Shown here: piece after piece, positions 1-31,150 of the stretch
Layout of the letters: the number at the start of each line of letters is the position of its first letter
Numbering within the stretch: the stretch's first letter is position 1
Assembly (NCBI GenBank): GCA_016709225.1
Contig: JADJEE010000012.1
Span: 1,987,630 to 2,051,629 of the forward strand
From: Deltaproteobacteria bacterium
Lineage (GTDB): Bacteria; Myxococcota_A; Polyangia; Nannocystales; Nannocystaceae
Length of the DNA stretch: 64,000 nt
Direction of reading: 5' to 3'
Position numbers and translations under genes: made by a program
Notes under the pieces: model-generated
What the model was told of the DNA's origin: nothing
What the model saw: the letters and a program-made list of their open reading frames with translations, nothing else
The model's database searches: none

Positions 1-1260
1 GCCCTGGTGGCCGAACGCGCCGTGGGTGCCCCACAGCACGCCCTCGTTGATGATGCCGCCGTCGGCGACATCGAGCGTGGCTTGATCCTGGAAGGTCGCG
101 CCGGGGCCGGTGACGTTGGTGAAGTACGAGTTGTACACCGCCATCGTCGCGCCCTGCTTGATGTTGTAGCCGATGCTCTTCATCGCATTGCCGCCCTCGC
201 CCTGACCGACGAAGGTGAGGTTCGCGATGGTCGGGCTGGTGAGCGGCTCGGCGGTGAAGTTGTCGGGGCCGTTCGACCACTCGAGGCCGTGGTTGCCATC
301 GGGCTCGCCCGGATCCTGGTGGACCACGACGTACTGGAACGAACCCGTGAAGCCCAGGTCGACGTCGAGGGCGTCGTCGGCCATGCCCGAGAGGATCAGG
401 TAGGTGGCATCGAACGCGCCGCCGAAGAATTCCATCGCGTCGTCCGAGCCCATGTGGCTCTGCACGTGGTCGACGGTGGTGTCGGTGCCGCAGGTGTAGA
501 ACGTGATGCCGTTCAACTCGTTGTCCATGACGAGCTCGAAGCCGGCCCACTCGACGCGGACGTACTGCAGCGTGCCGCAGTCATGCGCAGCGTCGCTGCC
601 ACCGTAGGTCGGCGGGTCGGCGAAGCCCTCGGCATCACCGACGCCGTTGGGCAGGTTGGTGACCGCCGTGCCGAGCAGCACGAGGCCGCCCCAGTCGGCG
701 CGCTGACGCTCGCCCTTGGCCTGCGCCGAGGTCAGCACGATCGGCGCGTCGGCGGTGCCGGCGGCGTTGATCTGCGCATCGACGTCGATGACGAGCGCGC
801 TGCCGTTGGCGCCGACCACGGTGGTGCCGGGCTCGAGCGTCAGGGTCGCGCCGCGCACGAAGGTCGCGGTCGTGAGCACCCAGACGGTGTCGCAGGTCAG
901 CGTGGTGTCGGCGGTGACCTCGGCGGCGACCTCCATGCGGGGCGCGTTCGGGTCGTCACCGTCGACGCAGCCCGGCGGGGGGCCGGTGTCGGTGTCGGTG
1001 TCGGTCGTGTCGACGCTGGTCGTCGTCATCGTCGCGGAGGCCGAGTCGGTCGCCGAGGCCGAAGCCGAATCGGTCGCCGAAGCGGACGCGCTGGCCGACG
1101 CCGAGGCCGAGGCGGAGGCCGAGTCGGTCGCCGAGGCCGAGCCGTCGGTGGTGTCGGCGCCGGTGTCGTCGGCATTGGTCTCGTTGTCGGTGTCCGACGG
1201 GCAGCCAGCCAGCCCCAGGGGGAGGGCGATGGCGACGCAGATCTTGCTGAGGCGCTGCAT
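1..1260 (-). CDS. Secreted lipoprotein, partial (N-terminus inside the window, C-terminus runs off the 5' edge). Has a signal peptide with a PLGLAGC lipobox, then a Ser/Ala/Thr/Asp-rich low-complexity linker, then a conserved domain I cannot place in a family.
   Basis: Reverse-complement translation from ATG (rc 1258-1260) gives MQRLSKICVAIALPLGLAGC... followed by the linker and a well-formed domain (…GVLWGTHGAFGHQG). Third-position GC is high in this frame, and the gene lies downstream of the TonB-dependent receptor in the same orientation. The ORF track lists only antisense artefacts here (7..1317, 716..1720). Confidence 0.6.
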   Translation of the reverse strand, partial: MQRLSKICVAIALPLGLAGCPSDTDNETNADDTGADTTDGSASATDSASASASASASASASATDSASASATDSASATMTTTSVDTTDTDTDTGPPPGCVDGDDPNAPRMEVAAEVTADTTLTCDTVWVLTTATFVRGATLTLEPGTTVVGANGSALVIDVDAQINAAGTADAPIVLTSAQAKGERQRADWGGLVLLGTAVTNLPNGVGDAEGFADPPTYGGSDAAHDCGTLQYVRVEWAGFELVMDNELNGITFYTCGTDTTVDHVQSHMGSDDAMEFFGGAFDATYLILSGMADDALDVDLGFTGSFQYVVVHQDPGEPDGNHGLEWSNGPDNFTAEPLTSPTIANLTFVGQGEGGNAMKSIGYNIKQGATMAVYNSYFTNVTGPGATFQDQATLDVADGGIINEGVLWGTHGAFGHQG

Positions 1261-1393
1261 GGAAAAGCTCCTGCGGGTGAAGAAGTGGTCCCGCTTCTCG
1301 GCCAGCGTTATGGCTGACCGAAGTGACCGTTCGAGTGCACGCAAGCGAACTCTCTGTCACGAAGCGGCCGAGCGATCGTCACGCCGCGGGGCG

Positions 1394-4300
1394 CTACAGC
1401 TCATACGAGATGCCGAACATGATCGTGGCACCCGGATACATGCGGTAGTTCAGCGCCTTCTGCGGCCCCTGTCGCCACACGATCGGCCAGTTGAGCATGT
1501 TGCCGACCTGCAGCAGGCCGGCGAGGTTCTTGTAGATGCGCTGCTTGCCGACGAAGTCGAGCTGGTGGATCGCCTGCTGGTAGATGTCGGGCAGCTTGTT
1601 GCCGCCGACGAACGCGAGGTTGCGGCCGACCATGTTGTAGAGCAGACGCAGGCTGGTGCCGCTGCTCTTGTGCTCCCAGTCGAGGTAGGCGTTCGCCACG
1701 AACGGCGACTGCCCCTGTAGCGGCCGCACGCGCGAGGTCGAGACGTCCTTGGCGGCCTCGGGATCGCACAGCGGATCTTCGATCGCGCAGTTGTCGTTCA
1801 AACGTACGCGGGAGAACACGTACGCGAAGTTGGCGCCGACCGAGACCTCGCGCAGCTGCTTGGTGATGAACTCGAGGTTCTTGCGCAGCTCGAGCTCGGC
1901 GCCGACGTTGTAGGCATAGCGCGCGTTGCGGAACGAGACGTTGGGGTTGCTGGCGCCGGCCGACATCGTCCGCTCGATCGGATCGATGAAGTACTTGCCG
2001 AACAGCGACACCGCGACGACCTCTTCGGCGCTCGGGAACCACTCCCAGCGCAGATCGCCGTTCCAGATCTGCGCCGACTTCAGGCTCGGGTTGCCCAGCA
2101 CCGTGATGCCGCCGGCGAAGTCCGAGAACAGAAATGGCGCCAGCTCGCGGAACTCGGGTCGCGCGACCGTCTGCGTGGCGCCGATGCGCACGTTCATCTT
2201 GTCGGTCGCCGGGAAGATGAACGACAGCGAGGGCAGCACGCTGTTGTTCTTGATCTTCGACGAGCGCATTGCGTCGGTCTGGCCGGTGAACTGATCGAAC
2301 GGCTCGACCTTCTGACGGTTGGCCTCGAAGCGCACGCCGCCGGCGATGCGGAACCACCGCACGATCGGGAGGTCCAGCATGCCGTAGGTGGCGTAGATCT
2401 GCTGCTCCGCACGGTAGCTGTCGTAGGGCTGCGTGGTCTCGGAGAGGTAAAACGGCTGCTGGCCACCGGCCGCAGGGCTCAGGCCGCCGCCGATGTACTT
2501 GTTGATGAGCAGGTTGCCGGTGCCGAGCGGCGCATCGATGCCGTTGACGGTCTGGAAGGTGAAGCGGCGCACCGTGAAGGTGCGATCCTTGCCCTCGGCC
2601 CACACGCCGATCTTGGCCTTGCCATCGAGCTGTCGCCACTGCTTGAACGGCAGCGTGAAGTCGACCGCGCCGCTACCGGTGTGGTCCTTCAGGTTCAAGA
2701 ACATCACGCTGGCGCCCGACCCCGACAGCCGCCAGTCGCCGGCGCCGGGATCGGGCTGGTAGACCATGTCGCGGATGCTGGGATCGTCGCGCTGCGCCTG
2801 GGCGTAGGAGCCGAACCAGTCGATTGCGAGATCCTTCGCCTTGGGGATCACGTGGTGACCACCCAGGCGCGTCAGCAAGATCGAACGCATGACGTAGCGG
2901 ATGCGCGTGGTCAGCAGGTCGCCGTTCTCGGCCGGGCCGGTCAGCGAGCGGGCCTCGTTGTCGGCATCGCGCGAGTAGAACGCCAGCGCGCTGAGCTTGT
3001 TGTGCTCGTCGACGTCGTACTTGACCATCGCGACGGTCGACCACTGCGCGTTGGCGACGGTGCGGATGCCGCGGAAGTCGATGCGCGGCGCGGTGAGATC
3101 GTAGTTGCCCGAGCCGGTCGGCTCCTCGACCACCGAGTACCACTTCCAGTTCTCCCGCAGCGTGCGACGCTGGTTGCGATAGCCGGCCGACACCAGGAAG
3201 CCGAGCTTGCTGGTGTTGGTGGGCTTGAAGCCGTAGCCGACCGTCGCTTGGCCGTTCAGATCCGGCAGCGCGACGCGACCGCGACGCACGCGGGTGTCGG
3301 TGTAGAGCGACTCGCCGAAGCGCTCGATCTGCTTCGCGGTCCACACCGGCTTGAGGTCGTCGCCGAGCGCGTTGCGGTTGGCGGGATGATCGTTGGGAAT
3401 CGCGTCGGGCAGCCGGCGCGGCAGGTTGCCGAAGCCGAACGCATCGGGCCCTGGAAATCCGCCCTCGAACGTGCGGTCGCGGAACGTGGTCTGGGTGTTG
3501 CCGCCGGTGCGCAGGTTGAGCTCGAACAGTAGCTTGCGCGGGATCTCGCGGCTCTCGAGCTGCACCGAGCCGCCGGCGAAGTCGCCGGGCCGATCGGGCG
3601 TGAAGGTCTTCTGCACGTTGATGGCCGACAGCGCACCCGAGGGCACGATGTCGAGTGGCACGGTGCGGATGTCGGGCTCGGGCGAGGGTAGGCGCGCGCC
3701 GTCGAAGAGCGTGTTGCCGTAGCGGTGGCCGAGGCCGCGCACGAACAGGTACTTGCCGTCGAGCACGGTCGCACCGACGATGCGCACCGCCACCGACGCG
3801 GTCGAGCCACCGCCCGACTTCGAGATGCTCTCGCGGCTGAGGATGTCGCGCGTTGCCGCCGACTCGCGCCGCTGCTGCAGCCGCGCGCCCTCGCTCTCCT
3901 TGTTCATCTCGGCCTTGACCGCGACGACCATGTTCGCGCCCGCCAGCTGGGTGAGCTCGCTGTTGATGGTCTCGTCGCTGCCCTTGCTGACGACCACGCC
4001 CGAGATGCGGCGCGGCTCGTTGGCGTCGCTGCGGATGCGCAGGTCGTAGGTGCCCGGCGGGAGCTCGAGCACGTAGTTGCCCTCGAGATCGCTCTTGGTC
4101 TTGTACTGGGTGCCGAGCGCCTCGACGTAGGCGCCGATGAGTGGCGCGCCGGTGGTCGCGTCCTTGAGCTTGCCGCGGATCGTGCCCGCGTCGCCCTTGA
4201 CCTCGACGGTCTTGACCTCGAGCTCCTTCGCGAGCGCTTCCTTGTCCTCGGTGAGATCGACGACCTCGAAGCCACCGTCCCAGCTCTCCTCCTCGGCGGG

Positions 4301-4615
4301 CGCGACCGGGCCGGTGGGCTTGGCGGGTGTCGGCGGCGTCTCGGCCGGCGGCGGCGTCTCGGCCGGCGGCGGCGTCTCGGCCGGCGGCGGCGTCTCGGCC
4401 GGCGGCGGCGTCTCGGCCGGCGGCGTCGTCGGGGCCGCGCCCGGTGGCGTCGACGGTGGTGTCGACGGCGGCGGCGTGGCGCTCGGTGGCGTCGGCGTCA
4501 CCGCGCCCGGCCCCTGGTAGTCACGCGACGCCGGCGGCGCGGCGCGTGCCACCTGCGGAGCTGCGGATAGACCCATCGCGAGCAGGACCCGTTGGACCCG
4601 GCGAGACATCGTCAT
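1394..4615 (-). CDS. TonB-dependent outer-membrane receptor of the Oar-like class. Signal peptide, a (PAETP)x5 Pro-rich linker, a carboxypeptidase-regulatory-like domain, then plug and barrel.
   Basis: A 1078-aa ORF. The CarboxypepD_reg-like segment reads IRGKLKDATTGAPLIGAYVEALGTQYKTKSDLEGNYVLELPPGTYDLRI, followed by plug and barrel-like sequence. The listed start is TTG; the internal ATG at 4615 (MTMSRRVQRVLLAMGLSAAPQVARA) gives a clean signal peptide. Confidence 0.85.
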   Translation of the reverse strand: MTMSRRVQRVLLAMGLSAAPQVARAAPPASRDYQGPGAVTPTPPSATPPPSTPPSTPPGAAPTTPPAETPPPAETPPPAETPPPAETPPPAETPPTPAKPTGPVAPAEEESWDGGFEVVDLTEDKEALAKELEVKTVEVKGDAGTIRGKLKDATTGAPLIGAYVEALGTQYKTKSDLEGNYVLELPPGTYDLRIRSDANEPRRISGVVVSKGSDETINSELTQLAGANMVVAVKAEMNKESEGARLQQRRESAATRDILSRESISKSGGGSTASVAVRIVGATVLDGKYLFVRGLGHRYGNTLFDGARLPSPEPDIRTVPLDIVPSGALSAINVQKTFTPDRPGDFAGGSVQLESREIPRKLLFELNLRTGGNTQTTFRDRTFEGGFPGPDAFGFGNLPRRLPDAIPNDHPANRNALGDDLKPVWTAKQIERFGESLYTDTRVRRGRVALPDLNGQATVGYGFKPTNTSKLGFLVSAGYRNQRRTLRENWKWYSVVEEPTGSGNYDLTAPRIDFRGIRTVANAQWSTVAMVKYDVDEHNKLSALAFYSRDADNEARSLTGPAENGDLLTTRIRYVMRSILLTRLGGHHVIPKAKDLAIDWFGSYAQAQRDDPSIRDMVYQPDPGAGDWRLSGSGASVMFLNLKDHTGSGAVDFTLPFKQWRQLDGKAKIGVWAEGKDRTFTVRRFTFQTVNGIDAPLGTGNLLINKYIGGGLSPAAGGQQPFYLSETTQPYDSYRAEQQIYATYGMLDLPIVRWFRIAGGVRFEANRQKVEPFDQFTGQTDAMRSSKIKNNSVLPSLSFIFPATDKMNVRIGATQTVARPEFRELAPFLFSDFAGGITVLGNPSLKSAQIWNGDLRWEWFPSAEEVVAVSLFGKYFIDPIERTMSAGASNPNVSFRNARYAYNVGAELELRKNLEFITKQLREVSVGANFAYVFSRVRLNDNCAIEDPLCDPEAAKDVSTSRVRPLQGQSPFVANAYLDWEHKSSGTSLRLLYNMVGRNLAFVGGNKLPDIYQQAIHQLDFVGKQRIYKNLAGLLQVGNMLNWPIVWRQGPQKALNYRMYPGATIMFGISYEL
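4327..4413 (-). repeat. In-frame tandem 15-bp repeat, 5-6 copies, encoding (PAETP)n in the N-terminal linker of the TonB-dependent receptor
   Basis: ggcggcgtctcggcc repeated on the plus strand. Translates to PAETPPPAETPPPAETPPPAETPPPAETPPT in the receptor frame. Confidence 0.8.
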
Positions 4616-4650
4616 GTTGGCCTTCTGCAAGCGCGAGTGGATCGCGATCG

Positions 4651-5079
4651 CTACTCGAGCTTCTTGGTGATCATCACCACCGGCGACGCAGCTCCACTGC
4701 GCGCCAGATCGACGGCACCGAGCACGGCGCCGTAGGGCGCCTCGTCGTCACCGTCGAGGTAGAGCACGTTGTCGGGGCGCGCATTGAACATGCGGCGCAG
4801 ACGCTCCGGCAGCTCCTCGCGCGCGAGCGCGACGGTGTTCACCTCGAGCGAGCCATCGGCGAGCACGCTCAGCACCAGCGGCTTGTCGGCGTCGTTGACC
4901 TGATCGAGCTGCTCGTCGGTGTCGTCCTTGGGCGGCAGCCGCACGTTGAACGCCTCGGTCATCACCGGCGCCAGCGTCATGAAGATGATGAGCAACACCA
5001 ACACCACGTCGACCAGTGGCGTGACGTTCATGTCGGGGCGGACCTTGGCCTTGAAGCCGGTGCCGATGCTCATGCCCAT
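4651..5079 (-). CDS. exbD: ExbD/TolR biopolymer transport protein
   Basis: Contains the ExbD motif NVTPLVDVVLVLLIIFM. A GGAGAG Shine-Dalgarno sits 8 nt upstream of the ATG at rc 5079. Confidence 0.85.
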   Translation of the reverse strand: MGMSIGTGFKAKVRPDMNVTPLVDVVLVLLIIFMTLAPVMTEAFNVRLPPKDDTDEQLDQVNDADKPLVLSVLADGSLEVNTVALAREELPERLRRMFNARPDNVLYLDGDDEAPYGAVLGAVDLARSGAASPVVMITKKLE

Positions 5080-20030: not shown

Positions 20031-20072
20031 TGCACTACGCATGTGGCTCAGGCAGCAAGGACATCCCACGCA

Positions 20073-20561
20073 ATGCGCAAACCAACCCTGGGCGGCCATA
20101 TGAATCGCAGATCGTGTATAGCCATTCTGTTTGTTGCTGGGTCGGGACTAGGCCTTGCGCTTCACCCTACGACTTGGTCGTTTGCGATGGCTGAAACCCC
20201 GCGCAATTCGCCCGTCCCGGCCCCCTATTCGAAGAGCGGGGAAGCAGAGGTCTCGCGCGCAAGCGCAACTGACACGCTGAGCTCGTGCACATGGGAAACC
20301 TTCAGCAGCACAACATCGGCTCTCGTCAATGCGGCGTGTCCGATACCTGCCAAGCGCGTAATCTCCGGCGGCTGCATCAGTAGCGCCTCGGGGCGCAAAC
20401 TGATTTGGATGCACCCATACGAGGAGGCCGCAATTGGGTCGCTTCCACTGCCCGACAACGGAGAGTGGTGGCACGCAACCGACGGCAACACAGGCTGGTC
20501 GTGCAACTTCTCCTCGTCTGGGACTACGAATACCGCGCTGGCGCTTTGTTGCGGCACCTAG
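20073..20561 (+). CDS. Small secreted Cys-rich protein, paralogue 1 of 3 in tandem. I could not place it in any family I recognise. C-terminal LCCGT.
   Basis: Signal peptide MRKPTLGGHMNRRSCIAILFVAGSGLGLAL (alternative ATG at 20100). Three conserved blocks: SCTW…S..TS, CP….ISGGC, and W…NTGWSC.F … ALCCG. Lower GC than the backbone. Confidence 0.55.
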   Translation: MRKPTLGGHMNRRSCIAILFVAGSGLGLALHPTTWSFAMAETPRNSPVPAPYSKSGEAEVSRASATDTLSSCTWETFSSTTSALVNAACPIPAKRVISGGCISSASGRKLIWMHPYEEAAIGSLPLPDNGEWWHATDGNTGWSCNFSSSGTTNTALALCCGT

Positions 20562-20646
20562 TTGCAATCAGCGTAGTCAGCCACTACGGATCGCGTCTGC
20601 CAGAAGGCGCTGAAAGACGATCAGCACAGTGAACACACGGACAACA

Positions 20647-21210
20647 ATGAGTCTTGTAGCCGGCGCCGGGCTTGCGTTGTTTCTGCTAGTCGGAGCAGGA
20701 GTGGCGGGCGCTCAGGCCGAGATCACGAACTCTGCCGACAACTATTCACCCCGTCTCAATGACGGGACTGTTGGGGATGGCCGCGATGGCCGCAGCAGCA
20801 ACACGCCAGCGGCCAACACCGACGAACTTCGCAGCGATGCAGTCGCGGTGCTCGCAGACTCGACTGACCATCTAAACAGTTGCGGCTGGCGTACGACCAG
20901 CGCATCGTGTGACTGCATCACGAATGATTGCGGAGCACTTCCGAATCACTGTGGGTACACGGTTGCATGCCCGGTTGGAGAGGCGGCAATCTCCGGCGGC
21001 TGCCGAATTTCGGGCGACTCAAGCGTCGAACTTCTTTCAAGTCGTGTGTATTCAAACTCGTCACCACTTCAGCTACTATATGCGACTGTTTGGTGGGGAG
21101 TGAGCGCAAATACTGGCTGGAGCTGCGAATTTGACAACGTAGACACGATGCCTTCCGGTTGGCCGCCAGTGTTTCCTACGATTGAAGTCACGGCGCTTTG
21201 CTGTGGATAG
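20647..21210 (+). CDS. Small secreted Cys-rich protein, paralogue 2 of 3. C-terminal ALCCG.
   Basis: Signal peptide MSLVAGAGLALFLLVGAGVAGAQA, with a GTG 18 nt upstream as an alternative start. The same blocks are present: SCGW, CPVGEAAISGGC, NTGWSCEF, ALCCG*. Confidence 0.55.
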   Translation: MSLVAGAGLALFLLVGAGVAGAQAEITNSADNYSPRLNDGTVGDGRDGRSSNTPAANTDELRSDAVAVLADSTDHLNSCGWRTTSASCDCITNDCGALPNHCGYTVACPVGEAAISGGCRISGDSSVELLSSRVYSNSSPLQLLYATVWWGVSANTGWSCEFDNVDTMPSGWPPVFPTIEVTALCCG

Positions 21211-21248
21211 CACGTCCAAGGTCCTCATCGCGAATAGGCATATACGTC

Positions 21249-21731
21249 ATGGCACCAGTGCATCTTTCCAAAGGCCGGCCAGGTCGGGGACACCACTTTC
21301 AGCTTGTCTTGCTGTTCCTGTGCTCCGCAAGTTGCTCTTCGTTGGACCAAGGCGACGATAAGCCTATTCCGGCGACCCCGAACGATGACGACGGAGATAG
21401 CGAATCGGCCGACGACGATGAAGCCGTGGAACGGGCAGGGGCGTCCGATGAATTGGACACTTGCTGGTGGGTAGCATCACCGAATGGTGGCACGTCGGTC
21501 GGCACCGACTTTACGGTGAACTGCCCGGCGTCAAGACGGCCAATTGCAGGCCATTGCATGCACACCGGCTCCGCGCAGCTAACGGATTCACACCCGTTCG
21601 AAGCGAGCAATGCATCGAATCTCCCAGAAGCTGGGGAGTCCTGGTACTCGACTAGTAGCACGGCGGGATGGCGCTGCGCTTACGACGCTTCGGTGTCAGC
21701 ACAGATCGGCGTACTTTGTTGCGGATCATAG
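21249..21731 (+). CDS. Small secreted Cys-rich protein, paralogue 3 of 3. C-terminal VLCCGS.
   Basis: The listed start is a TTG that overlaps the stop of paralogue 2; the ATG at 21249 (MAPVHLSKGRPGRGHHFQLVLLFLCSASC…) gives a signal peptide. Blocks: TCWW, CPASRRPIAGHC, TAGWRCAY, VLCCGS*. Confidence 0.55.
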   Translation: MAPVHLSKGRPGRGHHFQLVLLFLCSASCSSLDQGDDKPIPATPNDDDGDSESADDDEAVERAGASDELDTCWWVASPNGGTSVGTDFTVNCPASRRPIAGHCMHTGSAQLTDSHPFEASNASNLPEAGESWYSTSSTAGWRCAYDASVSAQIGVLCCGS

Positions 21732-22203
21732 AAGGCTCGCTGTCCTGACTCTGGCGTTCGCAGGAACACATGATTTTGCGTTGGCGGGCGTCCGTGATAC
21801 GCTTGCCGTGACGCGCCGCGCGGGTGACTATGTGGCACGGGATCTCGTCCAGGCAGAGGTGCTCTGGATCGTCGGTGTGTTCGCGATCAGCGAACTGTGA
21901 TTGAGGCGGAGGTCGTCTCGTTCGTTCGCTCCCGGGTCGACTCCGCGGCTCCGCCATCGCGAACTCGCGGGTGTGCACGTTGGTGCGGTTGCCAGGTCGG
22001 GTCCACCTGGATCGACTTCGTGTGCTGATTCAGAGATTCGCGGGAGAAGCCGCTGCGCGCGCAATGCGCGAGCAGTGGTGCGCGATGGAGGCGAGGATGT
22101 CGTCGGCGCTCTTGGTCCAGGCGGACGGCTTCGGCTCGTCGTTGGTGCAGTGTCCGTGCGCCGGACCGCGTGCGTGGTTGAAGCAGCCGCGGGGCTTCCC
22201 GGT

Positions 22204-23810
22204 TCAGCCGCGCGCAGACTTCCAGCTCGCCGGCAGTAGATCTGCCGCGTCGGCCTCGCGGACGCGCCGCGAGAGCCGAGCGAGCACGTCGGTGAGGTAC
22301 GCGACCGGGTCGACGTCGGCGAGCATGCAGCAGCCGAGGATCGTGTACACCGCCGCAGCTCGGACGCCGCCGGCATCCGAGCCCGCGAAGAGGAAGTTCT
22401 TGCGGGTGAGTGCGACGCGGACATGCATGCGTTCCACGGCACCGTTGTCGAGCGGGATGTCTGGATCGTCGAGGAACCGGAGCAGCGCGTCTTGGTGGTT
22501 GAGCACGTATCGGATCCCACCGCCCATCGGTGACTTCGGCGGTTCGAAGGGTTGGTGCGTCTCGCACCAGCGGATCAGTTCGCCGCAGACTGCCGCGCTC
22601 TTCGTGGCGCGCTCGGCGTGCCGCGCTTCGCGATCGAGACCGCGGATCTCGTCTTCGATCTGGTACAGCACCTTGTACGCCGAGACCGGCAGCGAGGCGC
22701 GATCGTCTCCGGCCTCGAGCGCGGCGACGAACTTCCGACGTGCGTGCATGTTGCACCCGCACTCGATGATGTCGTCGCGCGCGAAGCTCTTGTCGAAGAG
22801 CGTCGCAGCGTCCGCGACCGTATAGCCCTTGCGCAGCCTCAACAGATCCTCGGGACCGATCTCGCCTTCGCGCTGCCCGACCTTCTTGCCGGTGCTCGCG
22901 TAGAAGTAGAACGCCGAGTCGTCGCCGACGCAGCCCCACAGCGAGCCGATTCGCTTGCCCGTGCCGACGCGCTTGTTGGTGCCATCGCGGTCGAGCACCG
23001 GCAGACCTGTGCCGTCGATATGCATGATCTTCGCCGCGAGCGTGCGCTCCTTCGCGGCGCGCACGAGCGGTGCCAGCAGCTCCGTCGCCCACGTCACCTG
23101 ATCGGCGAGCGTCGACACCGATAGCTCGACACCGAGACGCGCGAAGCGATCGCGCTGCCGATGCAGCGGCAGGCCATCGCGGTACTTCTCGACGAGCAGA
23201 TTGGCGACGAGCGCACAGCCCATCCGTCCGCCCTGGACCACCTTGTCGCCCAGCGGCGCGCGCACGACCTCGGCCTCGCAGTCGTCGCACGCCAGCTTCT
23301 CGCGGCTGTCGACGCGTATACGATCACCTCGGCCGGGATCAAGTCGAGGATCTCGGTCGTGTCGTGCCCGATGCACCGCCGCTCCTTGCCGCATCGCGGG
23401 CACGGCCGAGCAGCGGTCGGCACGACGATCGGGTTCGGAATCCGCCGCAAGTTCGCCGGCAGCGGGCGGCGAAGCGGCGGCTGAGGAGGCGCCGGCGTGC
23501 CTCCGCGCGCCGCAGGTGCGACCTCCTCGCTGGTCTCGCGCAGCTTCTGATCCGCTGCGTCGCGGGTCGCGTCGCCGGTGCTCGCGAGGCTCTCGAGCAG
23601 CAACGCGAGCTGAGCCGTCGACACGCCCTCGTTCGTGCGACGAGGTGAGCGAAGCTCGGCGAGCTTGCGTTCGAGCTCGCTGTTGCGGGCAACGAGCTTC
23701 GACACGAGCTCGAGCACCGTGTCGAGCTGGCCCTTGTCGAGCAGCTCGCGAAGCACCTCGAGCACGGGGGCGCGCTTCGTCGTCGTGCTTGCCGATCCCG
23801 TCTTGCTCAT
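22204..23810 (-). pseudogene. tnpC: IS66-family transposase TnpC, with the reading frame split by a single-nucleotide frameshift near 23335
   Basis: The N-terminal leucine zipper and zinc finger (…CPRCGKERRCIGHDTTEILDLIPAEVIV) are in one frame (ORF 23094..23948). The rest (…IRVDSREKLACDDCEAEVV…DGLPLHRQ…DDPDIPLDNGAVERMHVRVALTRKNFLFAG…) is in the -1 frame (ORF 22204..23850). The junction is gaggtgatcGtatacgc. Confidence 0.75.
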
Positions 23811-23898
23811 GCCGACGTCGACACCATAGCGGCGTCCGGCGCCGCGGCAACCGAAAATCATCGCACGCCCGCGTGTGGTTGCGCGCGGTCGCCCGGCA

Positions 23899-24267
23899 TC
23901 ACGCGCGTGCGTGCATCGGCGGCTCCCATCGACGTGACGCGCGAGCACGTGTGATGTCGATGCCCTCGAGTAGCATCGAGAGCTCGTGCACGTCGATCTC
24001 GACCGTCGACACCTCTTCGGCCACGCGCTGTGGAAACGTGAAAGTGCCCCGCTCGAGCCGCTTGTGCACGATCGTGAAGCCGCCGCGCGTGTACACCAGA
24101 AGCTTCACCTGGGTCTTGCGCCGGTTGAGGAAGACGAAGACGTGCCCGCTCAGCGGATCTTGCGCGAGCACGCTGCGAACGTCGGCACTCAGCCCGTCGA
24201 ACGATCGCCTCAAGCTCACCGGCGACGTCGCGACGTACACCTTCACTGCCCGCAGCAGCAGGATCAC
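23899..24267 (-). CDS. tnpB: IS66 Orf2 (TnpB)
   Basis: VILLLRAVKVYVATSPVSLRRSFDGLSADV…DPLSGHVFVFLNRRKTQVKLLVYTRGGFTIVHKRLERGTFTFP. GTG start that overlaps the TGA stop of tnpA (GTGA). Confidence 0.8.
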   Translation of the reverse strand: MILLLRAVKVYVATSPVSLRRSFDGLSADVRSVLAQDPLSGHVFVFLNRRKTQVKLLVYTRGGFTIVHKRLERGTFTFPQRVAEEVSTVEIDVHELSMLLEGIDITRARASRRWEPPMHARA

Positions 24268-24614
24268 GTCTTCGGCCTCAAGGTGATCATCTCCGAGACG
24301 AGTTGAGCGAGCCACTGTGCCGACACACGATCGGCGCGCACCTCGATCTCGACCTCGCCGACGTGCACCACGACCTCGGCCACCACCGCCGGCTCGGACG
24401 CCAGCATCGGGACGAACTTGACCGCGCCGCGCGTGCCCTCCGTCGCGACGCGCCGCTTCCACCACCGCAGCCTCCCGCTGCCGAGCTCATGCCGCCGCTC
24501 GAACTCCGCGAGCGTCAAACCACTGCGCTTCCACGCGCGAACTGCTGCGCGGCCATCGGCCGTCGTCCATCGCACCCCGCTCGCCGGCGCCGTCCACTCG
24601 CTCCCGCGTGACAT
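24264..24614 (-). CDS. tnpA: IS66 Orf1 (TnpA, HTH)
   Basis: …WKRSGLTLAEFERRHELGSGRLRWWKRR… pattern of IS66 Orf1. The ATG at rc 24614 lies inside the 73-bp duplicated segment. Confidence 0.7.
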   Translation of the reverse strand: MSRGSEWTAPASGVRWTTADGRAAVRAWKRSGLTLAEFERRHELGSGRLRWWKRRVATEGTRGAVKFVPMLASEPAVVAEVVVHVGEVEIEVRADRVSAQWLAQLVSEMITLRPKT

Positions 24615-24745
24615 GCCCGCGAGCGTGCACGATCACTGGGCGGCCACGCGGGTGCGCTCGGGCGGACGGACACCTCCCGCGTGACATGCCCGCGAGCGTG
24701 CACGATCACTGGCGGCCACGCGGGTGCGCTCGGGCGGACGGACAC
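24601..24745. repeat. Tandem direct duplication (73 + 72 bp) inside the IS66 right end. Each copy contains the tnpA ATG and ends with the IS terminus sequence ggcggacggacac.
   Basis: 24601-24673 and 24674-24745 are identical except for one G. The 13-mer ggcggacggacac therefore appears three times (24661, 24733 and the true terminus at 24799-24811). Confidence 0.85.
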
Positions 24746-24961
24746 GCGCGTGGCTGAACCGGGAAGCCCCGCGGCTGCGTCAACCACGCACGCGGTCCGG
24801 CGGACGGACACCCACGGTCGTCGAGCACGAGCGCGGTCGGTCGAGATGGTCGCGCTTCAGGGTTGTCGGTGGGCGGCCCAAAGCGGCGCGCGCCCAACGC
24901 GGCCGGCGTGCTATGAGCATGCTGGCTCGCGTGGGCGCGTCTCCGGGGTCAAGCGGCAGCG

Positions 24962-25372
24962 TCAGATTTGCTCGAGGCAGGAGGCCGGCGGAGAGAGTCT
25001 CTCGAACCCGAGCTCGCCACGTGCAGAGGTCAGCTCAGCCACGATGGTTGAGTGTGGGACTTGCGCCATGCGCCCTACCATAAAGCCACGGTAGTTACGC
25101 ACAGCTTCACGTGGGGTCAGTTGGCCGAGAGTGCCGGACGAGACCCACTCCGCCGTGAGGACGTCGATCGCGAGCGCGGTGGCCTCCGACTTCGGCGGCG
25201 CAGGCACGTACTGCGATCGGATCTCAGCCACGCGTCGGGCGTCGAGAGTGTAGGTGCCGACTCGAGCGACTGAGCAGTCCTCGCCCTCAGACGGACCGGG
25301 CGCCGGACCAGGAACCGGGCCTTTGCACGCCGGGCAGATCACGATCAGCAAGGTGAGGAAGTAGCGTTGCAT
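24962..25372 (-). CDS. Small secreted or lipoprotein (136 aa), tightly coupled downstream of the S8 protease. Possible cognate inhibitor or chaperone.
   Basis: MQRYFLTLLIVICPACKG signal peptide. AGGAGG sits 6 nt before the ATG, and the start is 10 nt after the protease stop. Lower GC. Confidence 0.6.
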   Translation of the reverse strand: MQRYFLTLLIVICPACKGPVPGPAPGPSEGEDCSVARVGTYTLDARRVAEIRSQYVPAPPKSEATALAIDVLTAEWVSSGTLGQLTPREAVRNYRGFMVGRMAQVPHSTIVAELTSARGELGFERLSPPASCLEQI

Positions 25373-25381
25373 GACATCCTC

Positions 25382-27868
25382 CTAATCACCGCCGCCATCA
25401 GGCTCATTGTCCACTTCAGACGTGGCCATGCAGAAGACATGAACAACCGCAGACCCCGAACTACTCACCCATTCTTTGTCGACGGTCACCTCGACGCACG
25501 TGTCCTCCACGTTGACCAGCGAGTCCTCGAACGCTACCATTTTCTTGTGATCGTGATCAGCGTTGATGCGCGTGTAGCTAGGAGTACCGTAGCCGACCGC
25601 GCAGGTGCCATTCCCCTGCTTCGGGCGCAGGCGCAGCTCGAGATCGATGCGACTGATGTTGTCCTTTCCGGACATGTCCTCGATCGCCATCATGACGCAC
25701 TTGACCTCTTCGGTGCCCGTTGCAACAGGGCCACCAAAGGCGATGTATTGCTGGTCTGCGGTACCACTGGTGAATGTGTAGGTGTTGTACGAGAGCGCAC
25801 CTCCCGCAAAGCTCGGCGAGCCGTTCGAAAGCAAGCGGAGCTTCGCTCGTCCGAGACCAAAGAGGTTGTCCGCACCCACGACGTTCTTCGTTCCCGAGCT
25901 GTTGCCCCGGTCACCCATGCCGAGCATCACCGTGTGCAAGCGTCCCACGTTCGAGATCCACGTTTGGCCATCGTTCAGACCCCAGTCCTTGACGAGAGCC
26001 GCCATCCCGGCAACAGCCGGCGCGGCAAAACTCGTACCGACCCACTGCCCGGTGCTCACGCAGCCGTTGGTGCCGGAGCCCGAGGTTACGTAGTTCACGT
26101 AGGCAGATGGCGCCGCGAGGTCTGCCATGGACAACGCCCCGCCCACCGTCGTTCCGTCCGGCGACTGGATAGACCCACCGCCGCGACTCGCGTAGGTGTC
26201 GTCGATATCCATGACCGAGTACAACGTGTCGTCCGTGCTGAGCCCGTTGACCGAGAAGGTCTTGGGAATGTCCGCAGGGCTGGACATGTTGCACGACGAT
26301 CCCGTCGTGCCGTTGTTCCCCGCCGATACCGCGATGAAGATGCCGTCGTCGAACGCGCCCTCGTAGGCGTCCTCGAGATCATAGCTCGAAGTCGCGTCAC
26401 AGGTGGCGTTCGGATACGAATCACCATCATTCCAGCCGTTGCTACTGCTGATGATGCTCGTGAGATAGCAACTACCCGGACCGGATGGCGTGAGCTCAAT
26501 GTCGATGCCCTGAAGGCAACTCGTTGACATCACGTGACGGCTCATCAGGGTGCTACCCTGGTGATCGAAGAACTGAACGACCGCCTCCTTTCCGTAGCCG
26601 CTCGCCGAGTTCTCCCACGAGGCACTGTGGTTCGTGGTGCTGTCGCAAACCGTCAAGCCTTGAGCCTGATCCTGGGTGTAGTCGCCGACAGCGATGGAGG
26701 ACACGACGGTGCCGTGGTTGACGTTCGAGGCCTCCGAGTAGTTGGCTTGTGAGTAGCTCTCACAGTACTCAACCCAACACTTCCACCGGCCAAGGAGCCG
26801 TTCAGTCTCGCATCCACTGTCGTCGTCAAAGAAGCACGCTTCGTCATTGAAGTGCCACTGCTCTTGGATGCCGATCGTGATTTGTCCCGCACCGTTTTCA
26901 GCGTTGAATCCGGCGTCGATGTACGTCTGAGCGTCAGTGTAGGAGCGCGAATCTCGATGGATTCCGATCGCGCGGCTGCCGTGCGACTGAAGACCAACGT
27001 CGTCGAGATCGATCTTCGTGATGTCTTCGCGCGCCTGCAGCTCCTCCAACAGGCCCTTCGAGACAGAAGCGCCTAGCCACCCCGTGGTCCAGTGATAGAC
27101 GCGGATCGTTCCGCCGCTTTCCACGATCTGTGCTGCCAATGACGACGACCGCTCCAAAAATGCTTCCTCTCGCTCGGCCAGCGCGACTTCGCGCTGTTCG
27201 ACCGCGGCAGCATACGTCTCTGCGCTCCACATCCCCACCTCAGGAAGTAGCGGAACATCCCAATCGGGGGCACCCCGCAACTTGATCAGCACGTCGAGGG
27301 AGTCATCCGGTCCAGCTTCCTCGGCCGCAGCGAGGAGGGTAGGACGCACCACGAGAGGCGCATCGTCGGATGGTTCCGCAGGCGGGTCGACGTTTGGAAC
27401 TCGAGTCACCCGATAGGTGTCGGTGCGCGTGCCTTCCGCGTCCACGACCGACGTTACCGTCTCTTCGTACAGGTACTCGTCCTGTAGGTGCGTATAGGGA
27501 CGCGAGACCTTCCGCCAGGTCTCAAGGTCCAGCTCACCGACCTCCGTTGACGAGACCATCTCGCCACTTTCGTTCTCTACGAGAACCTTCTCGTACACCA
27601 ACTCGCGTCCAGCATTAGCTGCGTCCGGATCTCGTACTTCGGTCTCGACATCGCCAGCACCGCCCGAGCTCCCTTCCTCAATCTCATCCGCGGGGAGGAC
27701 TTCCGAGCGTGGGCTATGCAGCCCTCCCTCGGCACTGTCGACGGGCGCTCGGTCATCGCAGGCGGGCGCGAGAGCCAATGTGGATAGAGCCCACATGCGA
27801 CGCAGGCACGTCCAGCGGTTCGCACGGGAATTGCCAATCGCAACAAGCTTCTTCGCCGAGGTTGACAT
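25382..27868 (-). CDS. Subtilisin-like serine protease (S8) with a long N-terminal pro-region, 829 aa
   Basis: His motif NVNHGTVVSSIAVG and Ser motif GTSFAAPAVAGMAALV. Signal peptide MSTSAKKLVAIGNSRANRWTCLRRMWALSTLALAPAC. GGAGA ribosome-binding site before the ATG at rc 27868. Lower GC than the backbone. Confidence 0.85.
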   Translation of the reverse strand: MSTSAKKLVAIGNSRANRWTCLRRMWALSTLALAPACDDRAPVDSAEGGLHSPRSEVLPADEIEEGSSGGAGDVETEVRDPDAANAGRELVYEKVLVENESGEMVSSTEVGELDLETWRKVSRPYTHLQDEYLYEETVTSVVDAEGTRTDTYRVTRVPNVDPPAEPSDDAPLVVRPTLLAAAEEAGPDDSLDVLIKLRGAPDWDVPLLPEVGMWSAETYAAAVEQREVALAEREEAFLERSSSLAAQIVESGGTIRVYHWTTGWLGASVSKGLLEELQAREDITKIDLDDVGLQSHGSRAIGIHRDSRSYTDAQTYIDAGFNAENGAGQITIGIQEQWHFNDEACFFDDDSGCETERLLGRWKCWVEYCESYSQANYSEASNVNHGTVVSSIAVGDYTQDQAQGLTVCDSTTNHSASWENSASGYGKEAVVQFFDHQGSTLMSRHVMSTSCLQGIDIELTPSGPGSCYLTSIISSSNGWNDGDSYPNATCDATSSYDLEDAYEGAFDDGIFIAVSAGNNGTTGSSCNMSSPADIPKTFSVNGLSTDDTLYSVMDIDDTYASRGGGSIQSPDGTTVGGALSMADLAAPSAYVNYVTSGSGTNGCVSTGQWVGTSFAAPAVAGMAALVKDWGLNDGQTWISNVGRLHTVMLGMGDRGNSSGTKNVVGADNLFGLGRAKLRLLSNGSPSFAGGALSYNTYTFTSGTADQQYIAFGGPVATGTEEVKCVMMAIEDMSGKDNISRIDLELRLRPKQGNGTCAVGYGTPSYTRINADHDHKKMVAFEDSLVNVEDTCVEVTVDKEWVSSSGSAVVHVFCMATSEVDNEPDGGGD

Positions 27869-28633
27869 GCACAATTCTCCAGACCGGTGTTTCGGTCGGT
27901 TCGTCGGTACAGATCGTTGCCACGCCGCGCACATGTCCGCGCGCGGTGGCCCAGATTGGCCAAAACTCTGCGGCCGAGCATACGGCCGATTGGGCAGATG
28001 TGTCAACCGATGATTTTGCGTCAGAAGTATGAGTTCTTTACTCGGCGTCTAGCCGGGTCTAGCCGGACAATTTGCGGCGTCGGCAATGCAACACGGTTGG
28101 CATCGTTGGGTGTCAAAGTGACGCTCTCCGGGAGAATAGTCGCGCGGTTTCCGTACGCTGCGCACCTTCGCCAGCGCTGAACCAAGGCGAGGTAAGGAAG
28201 AGACCAGCGTGATGCTTCAATAATTCGCCGGCGGCCGGGGAGCGAGCGCCACCGACCTTTCAGCTCCTGTGGCACGCTACGTCCGAAGTGGGATGGCAAC
28301 GTCGCAGACGTCGTGGACGACACCAGGCGGCTCACCGCGATCGCGATTGCCCCCCTCGTCTCTCGGCCGGTGCGCATTCACTGGTTGTGCAGCTCGGCAG
28401 GAAGTCAGTCAGAAGGAAGACAGCGAGCGCTCCGTGTAGAAGCTCACAAGTGGCCATTGGATCACTCGGCTTGGACCTCAACACCGGTTACCGGGGGCCT
28501 TGAGCTACTGCTCGTCTTGCCGTGGAGGCCGTTCCCCTGGGAGAGAGTTCGTGGGCGGTCGGGTAGATCGTCGAGTAGCGACATGAGGACCGAGGGCGCG
28601 CAGCCACCCGTGTCGATGTCGCGAATCTGTGAC

Positions 28634-28658: not shown

Positions 28659-28708
28659 TGCGCTTGGCATACCTGGACATGACGTGGCGGTGGTGGCATG
28701 CTCAGCGC

Positions 28709-29224
28709 ATGGCAAGATTGTGGTCGCATCCAGCGACTTCGTTTGTTTGTCTCCTATCACTGAGCTGTTCGGACCGGAAAGGCGGCGATGAGGGCGTGGC
28801 GTCTAACACCGCCTCAAGCTCGGACGGGGATGGCGAGAACGGGAACTCCGAGGGTTCTTCCACGACGAGCGAAGCACTCGGGGTCGAGGATTGCGAAGGT
28901 CTCCTTGTCGAGGCCGACTGCAACAACGCCATGCTCGCCGATGTTGGCCAATGCATGTGGGTCCCGAGATACGCACCGGCGCCCGGCGTGACAAGCTGCG
29001 GAGCACAAGACGCAACGGAGGCGTGCGTTGGAATCATCGGTAGTCAGCAGGGATGCGGGCTGTATTCTTGTCCTGGCGATGAAGGCGTCAATATCTACTA
29101 TCGACAAGCAGATGGCGGAATTGAACTGTTCGTCAGCCCTCTGTGCGGCCCGGAACCTGTCGGGGGGTGGATGGCGTGCCAGGCAAACATCCCCGAGTGT
29201 TCTTGTCCCTGCTCTGCTAATTAG
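28709..29224 (+). CDS. Cys-rich lipoprotein, paralogue A
   Basis: MARLWSHPATSFVCLLSLSCS signal peptide. Conserved core C.GI.G.QQGCGL..C…..LY.R…..E.F.SP.CGPEPVG.W.AC……ECSC.C shared with the next gene. Confidence 0.6.
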   Translation: MARLWSHPATSFVCLLSLSCSDRKGGDEGVASNTASSSDGDGENGNSEGSSTTSEALGVEDCEGLLVEADCNNAMLADVGQCMWVPRYAPAPGVTSCGAQDATEACVGIIGSQQGCGLYSCPGDEGVNIYYRQADGGIELFVSPLCGPEPVGGWMACQANIPECSCPCSAN

Positions 29225-29231
29225 GAGGCAT

Positions 29232-29666
29232 ATGAAGCGCGCATGCCTGATCCTGCATGTTACCTTGCTGGGAGTGACAGCCTGCACCCAGACTGAGCTT
29301 GAAGACTGCGAGAAGATTCAGCACGAGTCAAAATGTGAAGATGCCGATGTTGATGGCGCGGGTGCCTGTCATTGGGTCGAGGCCTATCGGCCGTCTGTGT
29401 CGGAAACCGCATGCGAAGTGGGCGAGCCGACCGGCTTGTGCGTCGGCATCGGAGGCACCCAACAGGGCTGCGGTCTCTTTGGGTGCGAGCCAGGGTCCGA
29501 AGATGAATCGGCGAACCTCTACTTCCGCCATGATGGCCCGCAGGTCGAAGTGTTCGGCAGCCCAGAGTGCGGCCCCGAGCCAGTCGGCGATTGGACCGCT
29601 TGCTCGAGCGCCGACGCGCCGGCCGAGTGTAGTTGTCTGTGCGGCGTCGCAGAGCCGCCCTCGTAG
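29232..29666 (+). CDS. Cys-rich lipoprotein, paralogue B
   Basis: AGGAGG ribosome-binding site. MKRACLILHVTLLGVTAC lipobox. Same Cys framework as paralogue A. Confidence 0.65.
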   Translation: MKRACLILHVTLLGVTACTQTELEDCEKIQHESKCEDADVDGAGACHWVEAYRPSVSETACEVGEPTGLCVGIGGTQQGCGLFGCEPGSEDESANLYFRHDGPQVEVFGSPECGPEPVGDWTACSSADAPAECSCLCGVAEPPS

Positions 29667-29730: not shown

Positions 29731-30797
29731 TTAGTGAAGTCCGAGCTCGCTCTCCGAGCGATTCTCGGGTGGGTTGATCCAGACTGCCTTGGGGAGCGTG
29801 GGCACCTGCGGTGGGCCTGCGACGAAGCGCTCTGGGTTCTTCGCGAAGGCTTCGTTCATCACGAGCTGGCGCTGCGCGAGGACCTCGGTGGCGCGCCCGA
29901 AGAAGACGTCGGCGGGAGTGAGGCGAGCGATGCCGGAGTGCCGGTGCTCGTCGTTGTACCAGGCGAAGAAGCGCCGGCAGAAGTCGCGCGCGTGGTCGAA
30001 GCTCTCGAAGCGCTCCGGGAAATCTGGGTGCGACTTGAGGGTGTGGAACTCGGACTCGGAGTGCGGGTTGTCGTTGCTGACGCGCGGTCGGCTGAACGAC
30101 GCCGTGATCTCGAGGTCGCGCAGCAGCTGCTTCACAGTCTTGCCCCTGGGCACGGGCCCGCGGTCGGCGTGCAGCTTGAGCGTGCCCGGTTCGATCCCGT
30201 GGCGGTTGCACGCCTCGCGGATCAGCTTCGCCGCGAGCTCGCCGCTCTCCTCGTGGGCGAGCATCCAGCCCGGGTTGTAGCGGCTGAAGAGATCGATGAT
30301 CACGTACAGCGGGTAGTAGGTGTACTTCACCGGACCGCGCAGCCACGTCACGTCCCACGTCCAGACCTGGTTGGGTGCCGTGGCGATCAGTTCGGGTCGC
30401 GCGTACTTTGGGTGCCGGGCTTGATCGCGGCGCTCGCGGATCTCGTCCTGCAGCGCCAGAATCCGATACATCGTGCGGGGATGGCAGAGGTAGTGCTGCT
30501 CGTCGAGCAACGTGGCGTGCACGGTCGCCGGCGCCTTGTCGACGAAGCGCTCGGAGTGGAGCACCTCAAGCACGTTGGTCCGCTCGGCTTCGGAGAGCGC
30601 GCGTGAAGGTCGTCGACGTGGTCGGCGGGGGGCCATGCAGGGGCCGGCTGCCGCCAGCGGTACGCAGTGCTCCGCGGCACGCCGAGCGCCTCGCAGGCGA
30701 CCGCCACGCCGAGCTGGTCCGCGAGTTCGTCGACCGCTGCCTTCACGTCGGCTCCTCGGTGTCGTCGCTGTCCAGCCCCAACACCTCCGAGAGTTTT
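29731..30797 (-). CDS. IS3-family transposase OrfB (DDE integrase core), expressed as an OrfAB fusion by -1 frameshifting
   Basis: …VWTWDVTWLRGPVKYTYYPLYVIIDLFSRYNPGWMLA…HADRGPVP…WYNDEHRHSGIARLTP. The upstream part of the listed ORF is out-of-frame junk. Confidence 0.8.
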
Positions 30798-31150
30798 TTT
30801 TGGACCTCGATGATCTTCTCGGCCTTGCGCAGCTTCTCGCGCAGGCGCTCGTTGTCACGCCGCAGCTTCTCCAGCTCGGCCTGCTCCGCCGTCTGCTTCG
30901 GCTTGGGTCCGCGTTTGCGCTCCAACGCCTTCAACGTACCCTCGAGCCTCTGCCCGCGCCAGCTCGTGAGGTGCGACGAGTACAGGCCCTCTCGCCGCAG
31001 CAGTGCGCCCACTTCGCCCGGCTTCGTGCAGGCGTCGGCATCCTGCAGCACGCGCAGCTTGTACTCCTTCGTGAAGCGCCGCCGATGCGCTCTCTCTCGG
31101 GTCTCCGTCTCGACCTTCCGTGGGTTCGCGCTCGATGTCATTTCGTACAT
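30743..31150 (-). CDS. IS3-family transposase OrfA (HTH plus leucine zipper)
   Basis: MYEMTSSANPRKVETETRERAHRRRFTKEYKLRVLQ…LEKLRRDNERLREKLRKAEKIIEVQKKLSEVLG. Ends just after the slippery site. Confidence 0.8.
   Translation of the reverse strand: MYEMTSSANPRKVETETRERAHRRRFTKEYKLRVLQDADACTKPGEVGALLRREGLYSSHLTSWRGQRLEGTLKALERKRGPKPKQTAEQAELEKLRRDNERLREKLRKAEKIIEVQKKLSEVLGLDSDDTEEPT
30794..30801 (-). promoter_or_regulatory. Programmed -1 ribosomal frameshift site: A AAA AAA heptamer, seen as T8 on the plus strand
   Basis: OrfA frame reads …GTC CAA AAA AAA CTC…; the OrfB frame continues at -1. Confidence 0.6.

Follow-up and report, generated by a model that had tools for sequence, protein, structure and literature searches.

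Private chaperones of secreted hydrolases are few, and most described cases are Gram-positive or concern lipases (PrtM-PrtP, PrsA, Lif-lipase). That a subtilase can have a dedicated helper of the PrsA/SurA class is known already: the S8 proteinase PrtP is encoded with PrtM, a lipoprotein chaperone of the parvulin family that is specific for PrtP and needed for its activity (PMC3307742). We analysed a stretch of 64,000 nucleotides from an assembly labelled Deltaproteobacteria bacterium (hereafter the window, meaning the whole stretch), in which a gene for an S8 subtilase (positions 25382-27868, minus strand) is followed almost without interval by a gene for a protein of 136 amino acids (24962-25372, minus strand), here called the partner. 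The nearest precedent for this pair is PrtM-PrtP of Lactococcus lactis, an exported S8 subtilase beside a dedicated extracytoplasmic chaperone of the SurA/PrsA class. We consider it fairly probable that the partner is a dedicated periplasmic chaperone or maturation factor of its protease, one that works without a peptidyl-prolyl isomerase (PPIase) domain; binding, chaperone activity and the identity of the client are what we infer here.

The resemblance to the lactococcal system has clear limits. PrtM (about 33 kDa) has a parvulin domain and is a proven lipid-anchored protein, whereas the partner has 136 residues, no parvulin (PPIC-type) PPIase domain and an uncertain lipobox. PrtM is divergently transcribed relative to PrtP, unlike the partner, which is co-directional with its protease and translationally coupled to it. 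No sequence similarity between the partner and PrtM was detected, and the hosts of window-type pairs appear to be diderm (metagenome-assembled genomes labelled Deltaproteobacteria and Acidobacteriota), unlike the host of PrtM-PrtP. Lif (LipB/LimA) of Pseudomonas and Burkholderia is also a steric chaperone of the periplasm that serves one secreted hydrolase, and its gene directly follows that of its client; compared by description, it differs in being membrane-anchored and all-helical, with about 340 residues, an unrelated fold and a lipase as client. Bicistronic expression of speB and prsA in Streptococcus pyogenes is the subject of a paper cited in PMC8489961. To judge from that citation, it resembles our pair in the co-transcription of a gene for a secreted protease with one for a PrsA-type foldase; it differs in its protease, as SpeB belongs to the cysteine proteases, in its foldase, as PrsA there is a complete parvulin lipoprotein, and in its Gram-positive host. 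Finally, SurA, Cj1289, PEB4, LIC12922 and PpiD have 250-660 residues and serve as general chaperones of outer-membrane or secreted proteins, not operon-coupled to one client, whereas the partner consists of one minimal domain, which two conserved cysteines would close, and has no significant match to the Pfam SurA_N families.

The junction between the two genes (25373-25389, minus strand) can be read directly from the sequence: the protease stop codon TAG is overlapped by a perfect AGGAGG ribosome-binding site, which lies 5 nucleotides (nt) ahead of the partner ATG, and this ATG follows the TAG after 9 nt. The preliminary description of this locus, made from the letters alone, had already placed the small gene 3' of the protease behind a perfect AGGAGG site, ten nucleotides past the stop. 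Its open reading frame (ORF) for the protease, with the His and Ser motifs and a GGAGA site (7 nt 5' of the ATG), also stands, with two amendments: the genes lie on the minus strand, and the 829 codons between the ATG at 27868 and the stop at 25382 include the stop codon, so that the protein has 828 residues rather than 829. We also observed that the two ORFs share a reading frame (25373-25384, the TAG plus 9 nt), so that read-through of the stop would fuse both proteins. A promoter-like site, TTGACA-18-TATGCT, lies about 110 nt 5' of the protease ATG (27977-28006, minus strand) and was found as a pattern match in a consensus scan (10/12 positions). The guanine-plus-cytosine (GC) content is 0.606 for the protease gene, 0.650 for the partner gene, 0.60-0.62 for the block between 25 and 30 kb and 0.693 for the window; the lower GC that had been ascribed to both genes is thus clear for the protease and modest for the partner.

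The association between the two genes is conserved well beyond the window. We fetched 13 loci of partner family members, chosen from the best E-values to the weakest (9.7e-4), and checked them with tblastn where a contig truncates a gene (members P0001, P0004-P0007, P0010, P0011, P0014, P0021, P0036, P0072, P0081 and P0093). All 13 have a protease gene of one and the same S8 clade upstream of the partner, in the same orientation, which bears out the earlier view of a tightly coupled pair and shows the pair to be conserved. The genes abut directly in 12 of them, where they overlap by up to 23 nt or lie up to 23 nt apart, and the exception (L025) has one small Cys-rich lipoprotein gene between protease and partner. 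Pairwise identities of proteases and of partners are correlated (r = 0.80 over the 8 loci with near-complete gene pairs, the pairs of loci not being statistically independent), which shows that protease and partner genes are passed on together. Divergence is faster in the partner: between the window and L001 it is 31% identical, as against 59% for the protease. Adjacency and co-divergence together point to a partner that is specific for its protease. No third gene is conserved across the loci of the partner family. In L001, the cassette (positions 1500-5000) has a GC content of 0.55-0.60 between flanks of 0.65-0.70, which suggests horizontal transfer of the whole module in that sub-clade; no clear drop is found in L009 (0.65-0.70 in the protease region, 0.63-0.76 in its flanks).

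The extent of the partner family depends strongly on the sensitivity of the search. With a word-index search, the partner retrieved only itself and the protease a single homologue (P0003, in L001; 58-59% identity). The ORF directly 3' of P0003 is nevertheless 34% identical to the partner (134 residues, E 1e-22), and is itself followed by a homologue of a Cys-rich protein of the window. Scans with patterns from the protease alignment gave three more loci, L009 (from an acidobacterial metagenome-assembled genome), L010 and L011 (both metagenome contigs). A homologous small ORF, with a start that overlaps the protease stop, is present in L009 and L011; the contig of L010 ends 100 nt past the protease stop, and these 100 nt hold no obvious ATG or GTG start. 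An exhaustive profile search with a hidden Markov model against 1.84 billion representative proteins, with E-values up to 1e-3, yielded 91 matches. Among these, 88 are clusters of small proteins (median 147 residues) that carry the whole domain after a signal-like N-terminus, and the other three, P0013 (5128 residues), P0092 (4104) and P0038 (543), have 7-13 partial matches each and are probably compositional artefacts. The orphan status of the partner in the word-index search is an artefact of sensitivity, as such results can be more generally, and the small ORF, whose lack of conservation would have spoken against the pair, has 88 relatives.

Some of these relatives indicate what the family may descend from. 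Fourteen of the 88 have at least 220 residues, and Pfam profiles of parvulin domains match many of them (Rotamase_2 in seven, Rotamase in three, Rotamase_3 in two). Three matches exceed the gathering cutoffs, those of P0021 (Rotamase, 28.4 against 21.7), P0068 (Rotamase, 25.7 against 21.7) and P0078 (Rotamase_2, 28.4 against 27), and in all three the shared domain precedes the parvulin domain. The long form P0021 is likewise encoded immediately 3' of an S8 gene. Together with the SurA-like fold described below, these domains suggest that the partner family is a divergent branch of the parvulin-type envelope foldases, within which the partner of the window would be a PPIase-less form reduced to the chaperone core. 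SurA offers a parallel, as its chaperone activity resides in the module of its N- and C-terminal parts, without the PPIase domains (PMC2556385).

The partner begins with a hydrophobic, signal-like segment (a predicted signal peptide over residues 1-16 or so) that is followed by a Pro/Gly linker and by a single domain. The candidate lipobox, IVIC or CPAC within LLIVICPAC, is non-canonical, and a lipobox-like Cys is found in the signal peptides of about 30 of the 88 relatives. The protein, first described as secreted or a lipoprotein, is for these reasons better called secreted. The conserved, chaperone-like domain extends from Cys33 to Cys132 (24977-25276, minus strand) and, in the DSSP assignment on the model, comprises a beta-hairpin, four helices and a C-terminal strand. 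Its conserved positions are C33 (75 of 88), C132 (82 of 88), P57 (83 of 88), P59 (80 of 88) and D70 (80 of 88), with a nearly invariant P-x-P...D pattern. The two cysteines bracket the domain and may form a disulfide, which would fit a disulfide-closed extracytoplasmic domain; with the signal peptide, they suggest that the partner acts outside the cytoplasm. An AlphaFold2 model of the mature partner, built from a 3-sequence alignment, has a predicted local distance difference test score (pLDDT) of 89.8 and a predicted template modelling score of 0.81, and adds a short helix after the C-terminal strand. The structures listed for this model are LIC12922 (7.5), SurA (7.0, 6.2 and 5.9), a Bacteroides PPIase (5.5) and PpiD (5.2), and the model appears similar in three dimensions to the N-plus-C core of SurA. 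Scans of the partner with Pfam, NCBIfam and PADLOC gave no match except a spurious one to Trm112p (E 0.039).

The protease matches the Pfam profile of the subtilases (S8, MEROPS clan SB), Peptidase_S8 (PF00082), with 41.5 bits for a cutoff of 21.8 (E 1.3e-10), and all nine clade members that were scanned match it too (best E 7.6e-26); it is identical to a public protein annotated as 'S8 family serine peptidase' (P0002, 828 residues), and orthologues at 29-59% identity occur in 12 other loci. It starts with a signal peptide, in which LALAPAC may be a lipobox, and continues with an N-terminal region that is as long as first noted (about 335 residues before the catalytic domain), the catalytic domain and a beta-rich C-terminal domain of about 150 residues. 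The residues of the HGT, AGN and GTSxAxP motifs occur in the order His, Asn, Ser and align with those of subtilisin BPN'. They are the catalytic His385 in NVNHGT (26714-26716, minus strand; aligned with His64 of BPN'), the oxyanion-hole Asn518 in SAGN (26315-26317, minus strand) and the catalytic Ser613 in GTSFAAPAVAGMAALV, which holds GTSFAAP (26030-26032, minus strand); all three are invariant in the clade. In the full-length AlphaFold2 model of the protease, obtained from a 2-sequence alignment (pLDDT 33), residues 170-290 or thereabouts are the sole moderately confident part and have a beta-alpha-beta-beta-alpha-beta order that recalls subtilase propeptides (the propeptide-like segment spans residues 190-290 or so, pLDDT 50-77), a weak hint that the protease probably carries its own propeptide in the N-terminal region.

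The third member of the catalytic triad is unusual. When the clade is aligned with BPN', the position of Asp32 corresponds in the window protease to Glu336 (codon GAG, 26861-26863, minus strand). Ten proteases of the clade cover this column, the window and nine others, and eight of them have Glu (window, L001, L009, L011, L012, L019, L020 and a divergently oriented second copy in L022), whereas two have Asp (L010 and the main copy of L022), so that the carboxylate is always kept. That Glu and Asp replace each other in this column argues for it as the functional acid, and the alignment suggests that most proteases of this clade use a Glu-His-Ser triad. A full-text literature search found no paper on a subtilisin-like triad of this composition, which is not proof of novelty. 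Some loci carry another large gene beside the pair. The second copy in L022 (positions 1-2185, minus strand) is one, a divergently oriented S8 protease of the same clade that keeps the Glu, the His, the Asn and the Ser. In L019, an upstream protein of 804 residues (123-2537) aligns only loosely, with Ala in place of the Ser, and is perhaps a pseudo-protease, perhaps unrelated. A role of the window protease in anti-phage defence or type VII secretion was considered and rejected, as its matches to mycosin and IteS/IetS lie far under the cutoffs and are confined to the Ser region.

These elements can be assembled into a tentative mechanism. The first gene would encode a large exported subtilase, with a probable propeptide in its N-terminal region, a Glu-His-Ser catalytic domain and a C-terminal beta domain, and the second, translationally coupled through a Shine-Dalgarno sequence that overlaps the protease stop, would encode a small exported protein with a single domain like the N-plus-C core module of SurA/PrsA/PpiD-type chaperones. 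The Sec pathway would carry similar amounts of both proteins across the inner membrane. In the periplasm, the partner would bind the unfolded or pro-form subtilase and hold or fold it, which would prevent aggregation or premature activation and permit autocatalytic maturation or onward export, the service that PrtM renders to PrtP in Lactococcus. A more ambitious version, to which we give less credence and which we put forward as an open possibility, is that these proteins are a new family of obligately client-dedicated periplasmic mini-chaperones, with a disulfide-closed SurA-type core of about 100 residues that has co-evolved with a clade of Glu-His-Ser subtilases, and that the protease needs this steric chaperone to reach its active state.

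Several observations weigh against a chaperone role. A Foldseek search of the partner model against the Protein Data Bank (PDB) gave no significant match (best E 1.9), with 3nrk, SurA, Cj1289 and PrsA among the structures listed. The Pfam families SurA_N, SurA_N_2 and SurA_N_3 do not match the partner of the window, and among the 88 relatives SurA_N_3 is found in one, below threshold (E 0.03). A sequence-profile search of the PDB with the partner family likewise gave sub-threshold matches only (the PPIase HP0175, E 0.12). In the long relatives the parvulin domain follows the core, whereas in SurA or PrsA it is inserted in it. Lastly, if the protease carries its own propeptide-like segment, an external foldase is not obviously required. 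Given the absence of a Pfam SurA_N match, we describe the partner as SurA-core-like in fold and as a new family in sequence.

A first alternative, which we regard as unlikely, is that the partner is an adaptor or holdase that handles substrates and presents clients, for instance Cys-rich lipoproteins, to the protease, or that it serves as a membrane tether. SurA-type cores do bind unfolded polypeptides (PMC2556385), and the pair has Cys-rich neighbours. Two genes of what we call family B lie on the plus strand beside the protease in the window. The first (28709-29224, with a start at 28679 or 28709) encodes a Cys-rich secreted protein, and the second (29232-29666), preceded by an AGGAGG site, a Cys-rich lipoprotein (lipobox LGVTAC) that is 49% identical to the first. 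The family has some 10-12 cysteines and the motifs CHWV...QQGCG...CGPEPVGDW...ECSC, with no match in Pfam and sub-threshold matches only in a profile search of the PDB. It accompanies the pair in four of the 13 lineages, namely in the window, L001 (4638-5087), L017 (578-925) and L025 (859-1314), in placements that vary (divergent upstream, downstream of the partner or between both genes). The pair is constant, whereas family B was not found in the fetched DNA of the other nine lineages, some of which are represented by short contigs, and the family-wide lack of a conserved third gene also argues against an adaptor. Family B is possibly an accessory in one sub-clade, as a substrate or another kind of partner, and not a general feature of the module. 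As for the tether, the lipobox-like Cys in about 30 of the 88 partners would favour it, whereas the anchor is not conserved, the signal peptide of P0005 being without Cys.

The partner could also be a periplasmic inhibitor or immunity protein on a helical SurA-like scaffold that blocks the subtilase until its export, which we judge a little less likely still. The partner is exported to a compartment where premature protease activity would do harm, and its gene is tightly coupled to that of the protease. Inhibitors of secreted proteases are typically encoded in such tight operons with their targets; among known inhibitors, AprI/Inh acts on serralysins and staphostatins on staphopains. The SSI (I16) inhibitors of Streptomyces and the propeptide-like inhibitors of family I9 resemble the partner in being small secreted partners of subtilases, and the preliminary description had envisaged an SSI-like or propeptide-like fold; the model has neither the SSI nor the I9 alpha/beta fold. 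The parvulin PPIase domains of the longer relatives point to a foldase or holdase and not to an inhibitor. Between the two roles first offered for the small protein, inhibitor or maturation partner, the second fits the evidence. That the small ORF is fortuitous, or a general chaperone without a specific link to the protease, might be read from its self-only word-index search and its lack of Pfam, NCBIfam or PADLOC matches, and is highly improbable in view of 88 homologous clusters, synteny in all 13 loci, which come from different lineages and have junctions that overlap or nearly abut, a confidently modelled fold and the co-divergence of the two proteins.

The surroundings of the pair bear the marks of insertion elements. 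The block from 25 to 29.7 kb is flanked by two of them. An element of the IS66 family (22150-24811) is delimited by inverted repeats of 66 nt (22150-22215 and 24746-24811, 95% complementary) and stops 150 bp short of the partner gene, on its 3' side; the corresponding region of L002 carries Pfam marks of TnpB_IS66 and DDE_Tnp_IS66. Just inside its right end lies a perfect tandem duplication of 72/73 nt (24601-24745). On the other side, an IS3-type element (29731-31150, minus strand; orfA 30743-31150, orfB 29731-30858) borders the low-GC block. The public assemblies of the same organism (L002 and L003) end close to the point where the IS3-type element starts, at most about 150 bp from the end of the second gene of family B. 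No tRNA or Rfam feature was found near the low-GC island, and no intrinsic terminator pattern. An ORF for 118 amino acids 5' of the protease (28021-28377, minus strand), annotated as a gene in one of the public assemblies (L004, 1344-1700), has no family match on record; its last 65 nt overlap the longest-ORF version (28313) of the divergent Cys-rich gene, and it is probably not a real gene.

Beyond the IS66 element, which separates them from the protease genes, lie three tandem genes for secreted Cys-rich paralogues, which we call family A (20043-20561, 20629-21210 and 21198-21731, plus strand). Their products are 23-34% identical and all end in ...LCCG[TS], and the GC content of this stretch is about 0.59. 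The Cys-rich secreted families that had been noted beside the pair are there, at 20.0-21.7 kb on one flank and 28.7-29.7 kb on the other. The further suggestion of a secreted-effector cassette with the protease as its processing enzyme finds little support in the comparison of loci, with family B present in 4 of 13 lineages and family A found in no related locus.

What appears new in this system is the minimal, PPIase-less form of the helper, its strict translational coupling to the protease, its occurrence in apparently diderm lineages, the lack of an existing family model and the Glu-for-Asp replacement in the protease clade. A point for annotation and expression is that subtilases of the clade may need co-expression of the partner to reach an active form. 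If our reading is true, the family would provide a system of about 100 residues in which to study the recognition of one client by a SurA-type core, and to ask if natural chaperones can do without the PPIase domains that engineered SurA does not need. On the more ambitious version of this reading, the pair would be a minimal two-gene model of client-specific chaperoning in the diderm cell envelope.

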